This document shows, piece after piece, positions 47,600-48,484 of a stretch of DNA of 49,063 nt. The position numbers and the translations under genes are program-made. The notes below the pieces were generated by a model. The model was not told the DNA's origin and did not search any database. It worked only from the letters and a program-made list of their open reading frames with translations. The stretch lies in IMG/VR virus record IMGVR_UViG_2718217860_000001. One strand, 5' to 3'. Origin of the DNA: a virus. Lineage: Duplodnaviria > Heunggongvirae > Uroviricota > Caudoviricetes. The stretch's first letter is position 1. Each line of letters starts with the position of its first letter.

Positions 47600-47643
47600 G
47601 GCACGAGAGGATTTGAACCTCCGCCCCCCGACACCCCATGACG
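47600..47643 (-). other. partial tRNA-Pro gene (3' ~44 nt only); probable att-site remnant
   Basis: Minus strand reads CGTCATGGGGTGTCGGGGGGCGGAGGTTCAAATCCTCTCGTGCC, matching the anticodon-loop-to-acceptor 3' portion of E. coli tRNA-Pro(GGG) as I recall it, with one mismatch; 5' half and CCA end are absent. Confidence 0.6.
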
Positions 47644-47650
47644 ATTGGCG

Positions 47651-48484
47651 TTAGTAGAATAAGCCGAATAGTTTGGTGTAGAAACCTATCCCAGTTCCGG
47701 CAATTCCAATCAAACTATAAAGTGGATGGGTCTTAACTAAATCAATTAATACGACGGGCTTAATGCCATAAAGATCCCAAAAAGTTGCATCTGTCTTCAA
47801 CGTCTTATCATGGGTCCGATCGATGATATTGGCGAAAATGTCAACTTTTCGGAGGGTTGAACGATGGAGCTCCAAATAATTACCGTTTTTGAATGCATCG
47901 GCTTCTTCGGCTCCTTGCAAGGCATCTAAATCTGCAATACCGTTCATTTCAGTCAGGCTCATTAACCGACCTTTCCTACCTTTTGCTGACGTATGGGGAG
48001 CATAGGAACGACCGTAAAGAGCAACTAAGACGCGAGCAAGATCTATCTTCCTCTCATCCTGCAGAATGTATGGCTCACCGCCTAAAACACGAAACCTATG
48101 CTCAATTGCTTGGAAGCCATATGCTTCGTCTCTCATATTCCAGTGTATATACGTGAAGTTCGCATGGTTTCGTAAAAACTGGAAGTAATCGGCGAGCATA
48201 TGATGCTCCAACTCATCAAGATGATCATTTATATCATCCAGCTTATGCTGTAATTCGGCTGATTTATGAATGGACCAGGAATGCGTTTGGGCTGAGGCCA
48301 GATTTCTGACAGCTATGGACGTCACTCGACGCGATTGTCCAGAATCGTTTTCATAGAAGGATTCACAGGAGTAATGGATAAGATAAGATTGCTCTGCGTT
48401 GGCAAAGGCCTTTTCTAGGGCTTTTCTGTTTTCCTTTCTGTTCGCAATGCGAACTAATTCGGATGAAGACATTGGCCACTCCAA
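47651..48484 (-). CDS. hypothetical protein, 277 aa, hydrophobic C-terminal tail (function unknown)
   Basis: Uninterrupted ORF between the tRNA-Pro fragment and ssrA; C-terminus LYSLIGIAGTGIGFYTKLFGLFY looks like a transmembrane or amphipathic segment; no catalytic motif recognised. Confidence 0.5.
   Translation of the reverse strand: MEWPMSSSELVRIANRKENRKALEKAFANAEQSYLIHYSCESFYENDSGQSRRVTSIAVRNLASAQTHSWSIHKSAELQHKLDDINDHLDELEHHMLADYFQFLRNHANFTYIHWNMRDEAYGFQAIEHRFRVLGGEPYILQDERKIDLARVLVALYGRSYAPHTSAKGRKGRLMSLTEMNGIADLDALQGAEEADAFKNGNYLELHRSTLRKVDIFANIIDRTHDKTLKTDATFWDLYGIKPVVLIDLVKTHPLYSLIGIAGTGIGFYTKLFGLFY

Follow-up and report, generated by a model that had tools for sequence, protein, structure and literature searches.

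The stretch of DNA analysed here, hereafter the window, is the 49,063-nucleotide (nt) virus record IMGVR_UViG_2718217860_000001, which holds a lambdoid prophage of 47.3 kb integrated in ssrA, the gene for tmRNA. Read from right to left, the prophage end displays ssrA, a phage arm, a bidirectional terminator, an open reading frame (ORF), a fragment of a tRNA-Pro gene, a proL-like spacer and terminator, and a DinI-like gene, followed farther left by an AT-rich ORF of 410 amino acids (aa) and a tail-fibre assembly gene (Table 1). The ORF beside the tRNA-Pro fragment, referred to as the cargo gene, and the fragment itself are the subject of this work, and the explanation found to account best for both has two layers. 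According to it, the fragment and its terminator would be the fossil core of a phage attachment site (attP), now bounding a slot for exchangeable genes, and the cargo gene would encode a single-protein abortive-infection or phage-exclusion system; the probability assigned to this explanation is about one half.

Comparison of the window with the sister ssrA prophages c1-17, UK_Dog and HS shows that homology stops at 47639-47641 and resumes at 48505-48509, leaving a cassette slot at 47642-48504 between the fossil attP and the ssrA arm. The slot is occupied by an AbiTii protein in c1-17 and CFT073-type prophages (Pfam 3e-33, PADLOC 4e-33) and by two small ORFs in HS and UK_Dog, and throughout the cases compared the distance from the terminator hairpin to the cargo start is a few tens of nt, and that from the cargo end to the att core 1-20 nt. 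The cargo gene of the window is present in a single one of 5,426 complete Escherichia coli genomes, and homologues lie in the same slot, between ssrA and the fragment, in K. spallanzanii (96% aa identity) and in a Raoultella metagenome-assembled genome (53% aa identity), in prophages that carry UmuD or UmuC. Neighbouring slots also contain defence genes, namely PD-Lambda-5 between attL and the integrase in the window and, in c1-17, a type IV restriction enzyme in the interval from the tail-fibre assembly gene (tfa) to DinI. The locus shows two features of prophage defence hotspots: its flanks are conserved around a cargo that varies, and a known defence gene (AbiTii) is among the alternatives. 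The sequence comparison indicates that the slot is an interchangeable cassette site for different genes of benefit to the lysogen.

Table 1. Positions of the features discussed, with the evidence for each
Feature	Position	Strand	Evidence
ssrA (tmRNA)	48662-49024	-	ARAGORN and Rfam, 294 bits
ssrA 3' 27 nt, prophage att core, attR side	48662-48688	-	direct repeat with 1396-1422
ssrA 3' core, second copy, attL side; delimits the 47.3-kb prophage	1396-1422	-	direct repeat with 48662-48688
Conserved phage arm of ssrA-type attachment region	48539-48661	.	near-invariant in window, c1-17, UK_Dog and HS; kept in K. spallanzanii and Raoultella
Strong hairpin, a bidirectional terminator separating ssrA from cargo; right slot boundary	48510-48538	.	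fold -24.5 kcal/mol, z -6.4
Ribosome-binding site GGAG, 6 nt upstream of ATG 48472	48479-48482	-	read directly from sequence
Cargo gene, 273-aa protein: N-terminal helix, DnaQ/DEDD-like (RNase H-like) domain, C-terminal hydrophobic helix	47651-48472	-	
C-terminal hydrophobic helix of the cargo protein, residues ~250-272	47657-47725	-	
tRNA-Pro(GGG)/proL 3' fragment, anticodon stem-loop to acceptor stem	47600-47643	-	43/44 identical to proL
proL-like spacer and intrinsic-terminator hairpin (stem 47566-47583)	47557-47599	-	K-12 proL homology; terminator scan; fold -15.2 kcal/mol, z -3.4
DinI arm: frameshifted DinI-like gene (47110-47357) and flanking DNA	47008-47556	-	Pfam DinI 1e-17; RefSeq; 93.4% to Survcare253

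The ssrA prophage of O157:H7 was considered as an example of an empty slot and rejected; it lacks the tRNA-Pro block altogether, so it represents a different junction rather than an empty site. In this prophage (locus L096, 2850-3119) an intact DinI gene is joined to ssrA by an unrelated 270-nt segment with its own hairpin and no cargo, and the type III secretion system (T3SS) effector genes espM2 and espW lie nearby.

The original prediction, made from the letters of the window, described the cargo gene as a 277-aa ORF ending 7 nt from the tRNA-Pro fragment. The distance holds, the stop codon being at 47651-47653, but the length is corrected, as translation is likely to start at ATG 48472 and to give a protein of 273 aa; the TTG start of the 277-aa version overlaps the ribosome-binding site, and the ATG agrees with both the N-termini of homologues and the RefSeq annotation of an identical segment (S6aCHROMc, used for the last 4.6 kb of the window only). 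The gene has a GC content of 0.43, versus 0.50 for the window, and is under strong purifying selection, with a ratio of nonsynonymous to synonymous substitution (dN/dS) of 0.034 at a dS of 0.62. It starts 37 nt past the bidirectional terminator, itself placed after ssrA, and the AbiTii and two-ORF cargos of the sister prophages are placed likewise relative to it. No sigma-70-like promoter was found between 48472 and 48662, an interval that includes the sequence from terminator to ATG. With no recognisable promoter and a position behind the ssrA terminator in the ssrA orientation, the cargo may thus be expressed by read-through; these features suggest, speculatively, read-through of the ssrA terminator in the lysogen, or transcription from the int operon in the circular phage.

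The cargo protein belongs to a large family, whose only profile match is phrog_8766, of no known function; a profile search of the Protein Data Bank (PDB) sequences returned noise only, and no description of the family was found in the literature searched. Altogether, 2,871 homologues were collected, forming 1,069 clusters at 50% identity, and 412 of the 432 pattern matches from a scan of 185,579 species-representative genomes were confirmed as relatives. They are distributed among Proteobacteria, Firmicutes, Cyanobacteria, Nitrospira, Acidobacteria, Bacteroidota and other phyla, on prophages, plasmids and islands, including plasmids of Bacillus, Legionella and Calothrix (45-51% identity), and homologues of Gram-positive and Gram-negative hosts share 45-50% identity. 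In Streptococcus prophages, homologues of 38% identity lie in the lysogeny module, in the int/cI orientation. When neighbours were clustered over 80 loci, no family recurred in more than five, so the protein acts alone, and a multi-gene system was rejected on the same data. Among the genes directly beside it are those of type I and type IIG restriction-modification systems, Mrr, AbiJ, prokaryotic Argonaute (pAgo) and integrases.

Some members of the family show peculiarities of their own. In Serratia marcescens (CP018919; L007, 5735-5790) the homologue is the outermost prophage gene and lies beside the 3' fragment of a tRNA, tRNA-Leu(UAA)-like by eye, where ARAGORN finds no tRNA; an AT-rich region upstream of the homologue may supply it with a promoter of its own, and SRAP and UmuDC genes adjoin it. 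Three independent contigs of one Pseudomonas clade (L008-L010) have a gene for a Zeta-toxin-domain protein and a 55-aa ORF following the homologue; the Zeta-toxin-like neighbour was rejected as a general partner, being local to that clade, where the pairing may be a clade-specific partnership. Homologues of Burkholderiales type (~310 aa) contain a low-complexity insertion of ~30 residues between window residues ~78 and 81 (alignment A1), following the first helix of the exonuclease-like domain.

The hydrophobic C-terminal tail pointed out in the original prediction proved to be real and family-wide. Of 137 full-length cluster representatives, 109 have a hydrophobic helix at most 25 residues from the C-terminus, as have the 49 close homologues without exception; it is conserved in character and not in sequence, and this one helix is predicted to tether the protein to the inner membrane. 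In nine clusters the tail is replaced by a TIR_2 domain, giving proteins of 359-375 aa whose closest relatives are ordinary tailed forms of 265 aa, 57-67% identical in the N-terminal domain; a separate member of 815 aa carries a TIR domain of CAP12/Pycsar type. The TIR-fused forms are solo genes as well. A membrane module in some members and a TIR domain in others, on one and the same sensor, is typical of abortive-infection effectors such as those of Pycsar, CBASS and Thoeris.

The domain preceding the tail, predicted to be cytoplasmic, is modelled as an RNase H-like/DnaQ-like exonuclease fold of the DEDD group and has lost its catalytic acidic residues. Its top Foldseek match in the PDB is MAEL, a relative of the fold that itself lacks the DEDD residues. 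The earlier statement that the protein has no recognisable catalytic motif is correct; the fold, however, is recognisably DnaQ-like. The DEDD signature, consisting of four invariant acids in motifs ExoI-III and a Tyr/His general base, is absent from the family: among 104 diverse members only Tyr34, Glu89, Arg126, Ser205 and Lys209 are invariant, and there is no invariant Asp. The presumed ExoI Asp position (residue 35) is Ser in 79 and Ala in 20 of these members, Glu37 is replaced by Gln in 8, and the Asp is kept at position 115 in 70 and at position 211 in 36, while one sub-clade reads HYACQS at the ExoI motif and keeps neither acid. Near-invariant residues at positions His33, Cys36, His110 and Trp111 suggest a remodelled pocket. 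An hhalign comparison of the family profile with E. coli epsilon gave no alignment, and the catalytic positions are therefore not mappable by sequence.

Considering what is directly observed, namely how the sequences are related, the cassette slot, the protein fold, the lost conservation of the DEDD residues, the alternation of membrane helix and TIR domain, the solo organisation and the purifying selection, we infer the sensor and effector roles, the trigger, the route of expression and the defence function; the likeliest role of the cargo is that of a new anti-phage defence made of one gene. In this scheme the infection would be sensed by the dead-exonuclease domain, for which the cue may be a DNA end of the phage, an intermediate of replication or a protein of the phage. 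Once triggered, the protein would self-associate, and the C-terminal helices so clustered would damage the membrane, stopping the infection or arresting growth. In the TIR-fused sub-clade the same sensor would drive the TIR domain, also an effector activated by oligomerisation. The idea of a membrane-acting effector like those of abortive infection, already put forward in the original prediction, gains indirect support from the conservation of the helix across phyla, the TIR exchange in a sub-clade and the AbiTii gene in the same slot of sister prophages.

Several points weigh against this defence reading: (i) the protein has no match in Pfam or NCBIfam, and PADLOC-DB v2, which includes AbiTii, PD-Lambda and the candidate PDC families, returned 0 families at E<=1; (ii) the association with defence islands comes from a sample of loci, and the TIR-fused forms sit among housekeeping genes; (iii) the catalytic positions were placed by motif order and predicted secondary structure, not by three-dimensional superposition, and the near-invariant His33, Cys36 and His110 may, together with the invariant Lys209, build an unconventional active site; (iv) among the 49 tails aligned, that of the window protein has the lowest hydrophobicity (Kyte-Doolittle 1.46) and is rich in Gly, so that its membrane insertion is predicted but not certain; (v) a single helix as killing effector is an assumption made by analogy; and (vi) the argument for read-through expression is solely the absence of a consensus promoter.

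The alternative that survives best, although unlikely, is that the cargo is a prophage moron with a non-defence function, such as lysogenic conversion affecting envelope physiology, assistance to the phage in processing its DNA or in timing lysis, or selfish stabilisation. Att-proximal positions indeed also hold genes of virulence or physiology (sseI by the fragment region of Gifsy-2, and the T3SS effectors of the O157 ssrA prophage), many loci of the family lie among housekeeping genes, and the defence databases returned no match. This reading, however, agrees poorly with the patchy spread over many phyla, prophages, plasmids and islands and with the identity kept between Gram-positive and Gram-negative hosts, as well as with the existence of TIR-fused variants, the presence of AbiTii as alternative occupant of the slot and the lysogeny-module orientation in Streptococcus, while stabilisation by a toxin-antitoxin pair is contradicted by the missing partner gene.

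Rather unlikely, too, is the reading that the protein works as an active nuclease, tethered to the inner membrane and destroying phage DNA there as it comes in, in which case the outcome would be superinfection exclusion and not abortive infection. Membrane-bound nucleases acting at the injection stage provide a conceptual parallel. The fold is that of 3'-5' exonucleases, a domain anchored by its C-terminus would lie at the cytoplasmic face, the site of phage DNA entry, Glu37, Asp115 and Asp144 are kept in most members, the near-invariant His and Cys residues could form an alternative metal site, and the top structural match, MAEL, likewise does without DEDD. Against a nuclease stand the absence of any invariant Asp in the 104 members, Ser or Ala at the ExoI Asp position, and a whole sub-clade reading YACQS, where neither acid is left; in addition, a TIR domain in the place of the tail fits a sensor plus effector better than a localised nuclease.

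The first layer of the explanation, the fossil attP, concerns the DNA at the left boundary of the slot. The 44-nt tRNA-Pro 3' fragment reported in the original prediction is indeed present inside the element, in one copy in the window where 0 are expected by chance. It matches the annotated tRNA-Pro gene proL in essentially all of the 5,426 complete E. coli genomes (97.7% over 44 nt, E ~1e-10), and in most of them the match extends through the proL spacer and terminator (47557-47643) at 83-85% identity; this spacer and terminator hairpin also lie downstream of the cargo gene. The ssrA 3' end (48662) is 1,018 nt away, in agreement with the distance of about 1 kb given for the ssrA junction. ARAGORN finds no complete tRNA at 47600-47643, and the covariance-model check proposed with the prediction gave a formally non-significant result, as Infernal RF00005 reached 14.7 bits (E=1.3) at 47598-47638 (-), under the gathering score of 29. 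At its acceptor/CCA end the window copy has, in addition, lost 4 nt. What lies at 47600-47643 is a tRNA fragment and not a tRNA gene; a covariance model is ill-suited to such a 3' fragment, and the evidence from sequence and synteny is decisive.

Nine copies of the block from different elements were aligned with K-12 proL. They have in common the sequence from the terminator hairpin through 'CCCCATG', and divergence always begins at the anticodon loop, where, in the Williams 2002 classification, integrases of the anticodon-loop type reportedly cross over. In the free temperate coliphages Eeyore and Flotzy the genes for a tail fibre, DinI and a UmuD-like protein precede the block, which is followed ~140 nt on by the integrase, an arrangement that identifies it as a probable working attP. 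Genuine proL is occupied by the Survcare253 prophage, whose DinI arm shares 93.4% identity with window 47008-47643 and leads directly into a complete tRNA-Pro adjoining yejM. The block also occurs in Gifsy-2 and, in two copies, in an e14-like prophage at icd (GF8), thus keeping its position in prophage lineages with different att sites (ssrA, icd, Gifsy-2). An intact ...CGACCA 3' end is displayed by the copies of the active phages and by those of GF8, Gifsy-2 and the Raoultella ssrA prophage, while 3'-end deletions of 1-4 nt mark the copies from the three E. coli ssrA prophages under comparison (window, c1-17, UK_Dog/HS), as expected for a site that no longer needs to rebuild a tRNA. The next gene to the block is the cargo in the window and the adjacent integrase in Eeyore and Flotzy, and the only intact integrase of the prophage lies at the ssrA attL end (5471-6637); lacking its adjacent cognate integrase, the window copy is therefore taken as a fossil. 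Given the shared block, the integrase-adjacent copies of the phages and the prophage lodged in proL, the tRNA-Pro piece and its proL-like terminator are therefore identified, by comparison, as the fossil attP core of proL-integrating lambdoid phages, which would form the left boundary of the cargo slot. No description of a fossil proL attP site was found in the literature searched.

The view of the fragment as an older att remnant is thus borne out, since the core architecture with its terminator is of the anticodon-loop type and the same block stands beside an integrase in Eeyore and Flotzy. The accompanying suggestion, by which a tRNA-Pro-integrating element would be the source of a captured terminal ~1 kb, is not: it is instead the DinI/tail side (47008-47643) that matches the arm of a proL prophage, the DinI arm being the right arm common to the window and the proL-integrated prophages. 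The proL ancestry would accordingly belong to the tail/DinI body of the phage, and the terminal 1-kb cargo is a cassette that can be replaced and has itself no link to tRNA-Pro, its homologues being found beside a tRNA-Leu-like fragment in Serratia, in the lysogeny module of Streptococcus prophages and on Bacillus plasmids. The tail/DinI arm would descend from a lineage integrating into the tRNA-Pro gene proL; an ssrA-type integration module would then have taken over, and the proL attP core would have been left behind and decayed. The DinI-like gene of the window (-) is frameshifted, and it is annotated as a pseudogene in the c1-17, UK_Dog and HS ssrA prophages and in a proL prophage, while DinI is intact in the O157 ssrA prophage, Eeyore and Flotzy.

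A quite improbable extension of the fossil attP reading is that the core is still used, integrases of proL type from co-resident or superinfecting phages like Eeyore and Flotzy acting in trans for both insertion and exchange of promoterless one-gene cassettes, so that the right end of many lambdoid prophages may be an integron-like collector of defence genes. It is in line with the position of all cargo junctions at the anticodon-loop crossover point, with the end of every cargo gene within a few nt of the core, and with the two 99%-identical att blocks that, 1,171 nt apart, flank a cassette in the GF8 e14-like prophage (icd). In GF8 (NZ_CP172212; L006) these blocks lie at 5019-5124 and 6190-6295 and flank a gene for a 261-aa protein of unknown function, followed by an HNH endonuclease gene and then the icd attR, in an arrangement resembling a cassette array; the 261-aa protein was considered as a homologue of the window cargo and is not one. 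Finally, it is very improbable that the tRNA-Pro piece is no ancestral attP but host DNA from an aberrant proL excision, or a chance or convergent terminator module whose coincidence with the cargo boundary is incidental: the block does include a proL-like terminator, as host-derived DNA would, and is in single copy, with no adjacent proL-type integrase and a non-significant covariance score, but it adjoins an integrase in two free phage genomes, keeps its place in several lineages with different att sites, always diverges at the anticodon loop, and belongs to an arm shared with a prophage that sits in genuine proL.

Regarding the rest of the window, no complete E. coli genome matches it as a whole; S6aCHROMc is near-identical to its last 4.6 kb only (one mismatch), and the remainder is mosaic. 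Left of the prophage attL lies an intact-looking P4-type integrase (4-1272; a 423-aa ORF given as 1-1272 (-) in the ORF table, the window opening with its stop codon), which is part of an older ssrA island, and two elements are therefore in tandem at ssrA. The region 1501-5186, between attL(ssrA) and the prophage integrase, holds the PD-Lambda-5 defence system. Its methyltransferase (1501-2400) matches PD-Lambda-5_B at 6e-124, its ATPase partner (2480-3925) has 481 aa, versus 577 aa in S6aCHROMc, and a DDE transposase, IS5-like by our reading, follows at 4206-5186; given the shortened ATPase and the adjoining transposase, the system of the window is probably disrupted. The 410-aa ORF (45532-46764 (-), 31% GC) matches phrog_19262 and has no Pfam or PADLOC match. 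It occupies a second variable slot, from the tail-fibre assembly gene to DinI, where sister prophages have a DUF262 type IV restriction enzyme (c1-17) or an unknown protein of 315 aa, which makes it another candidate defence gene.

If the proposed function is correct, the cargo represents a widespread single-gene immune family, found in many phyla on prophages and plasmids, whose sensor would be a proofreading-exonuclease fold without catalysis, a type of sensor absent from PADLOC-DB v2 (2023), Pfam and NCBIfam. The natural swap of membrane helix for TIR domain lends itself to experiments, since NAD depletion is measurable. From the att analysis, integration modules are exchanged between lambdoid phages, and cargo slots can be marked, perhaps even generated, by former attachment cores, which helps to find accessory genes by position. 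Should the defence prediction be false, a prophage moron slot bounded by two att-type sequences would still be documented.

Compared with known systems, the fragment resembles the anticodon-loop-type tRNA att sites of tyrosine integrases in its block of identity from the anticodon loop to the tRNA 3' end and in the phage-supplied terminator that would rebuild a working tRNA gene, but differs in being a decayed single copy, 1 kb inside the prophage and apart from its integrase. The slot shares conserved flanks and interchangeable cargo, including known defence genes, with att-proximal moron regions of lambdoid phages and with the defence hotspots described in prophages and satellites, including those of P2 and P4 (Rousset et al. 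2022, PMC9122126). It differs from the P2/P4 hotspots in phage family and position, its left flank being a fossil tRNA-Pro attP core and its right flank the terminator and arm of a live ssrA att site.

As for the protein, the fold is shared with DEDD/DnaQ-like exonucleases, among them the proofreading domains of family B and family A polymerases. The identity to these, however, is only ~10-14%, with no sequence-profile match, the four catalytic acids are not conserved, and the window protein stands alone with a membrane helix and no polymerase. Degenerate exonuclease-fold domains (Maelstrom MAEL and the EXO-like domains of Exuperantia, EXD1 and Egalitarian) are comparable with weak scores (Foldseek E 2e-3, TM-score ~0.35); they belong to eukaryotic proteins of RNA pathways, without a membrane helix and without evidence of common descent with the family. 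In contrast to Pycsar, CBASS and Thoeris, the family has no signal-making partner (cyclase, CD-NTase or ThsB) nor any conserved neighbour, its putative sensor has an exonuclease fold and not the nucleotide-binding domain of those systems, and it uses one helix rather than a multi-pass transmembrane (TM) module. Like those systems (PycTM and PycTIR in the case of Pycsar), it nevertheless combines the same N-terminal domain with either a TM helix or a TIR domain, one of its TIR domains being of the CAP12/Pycsar type.

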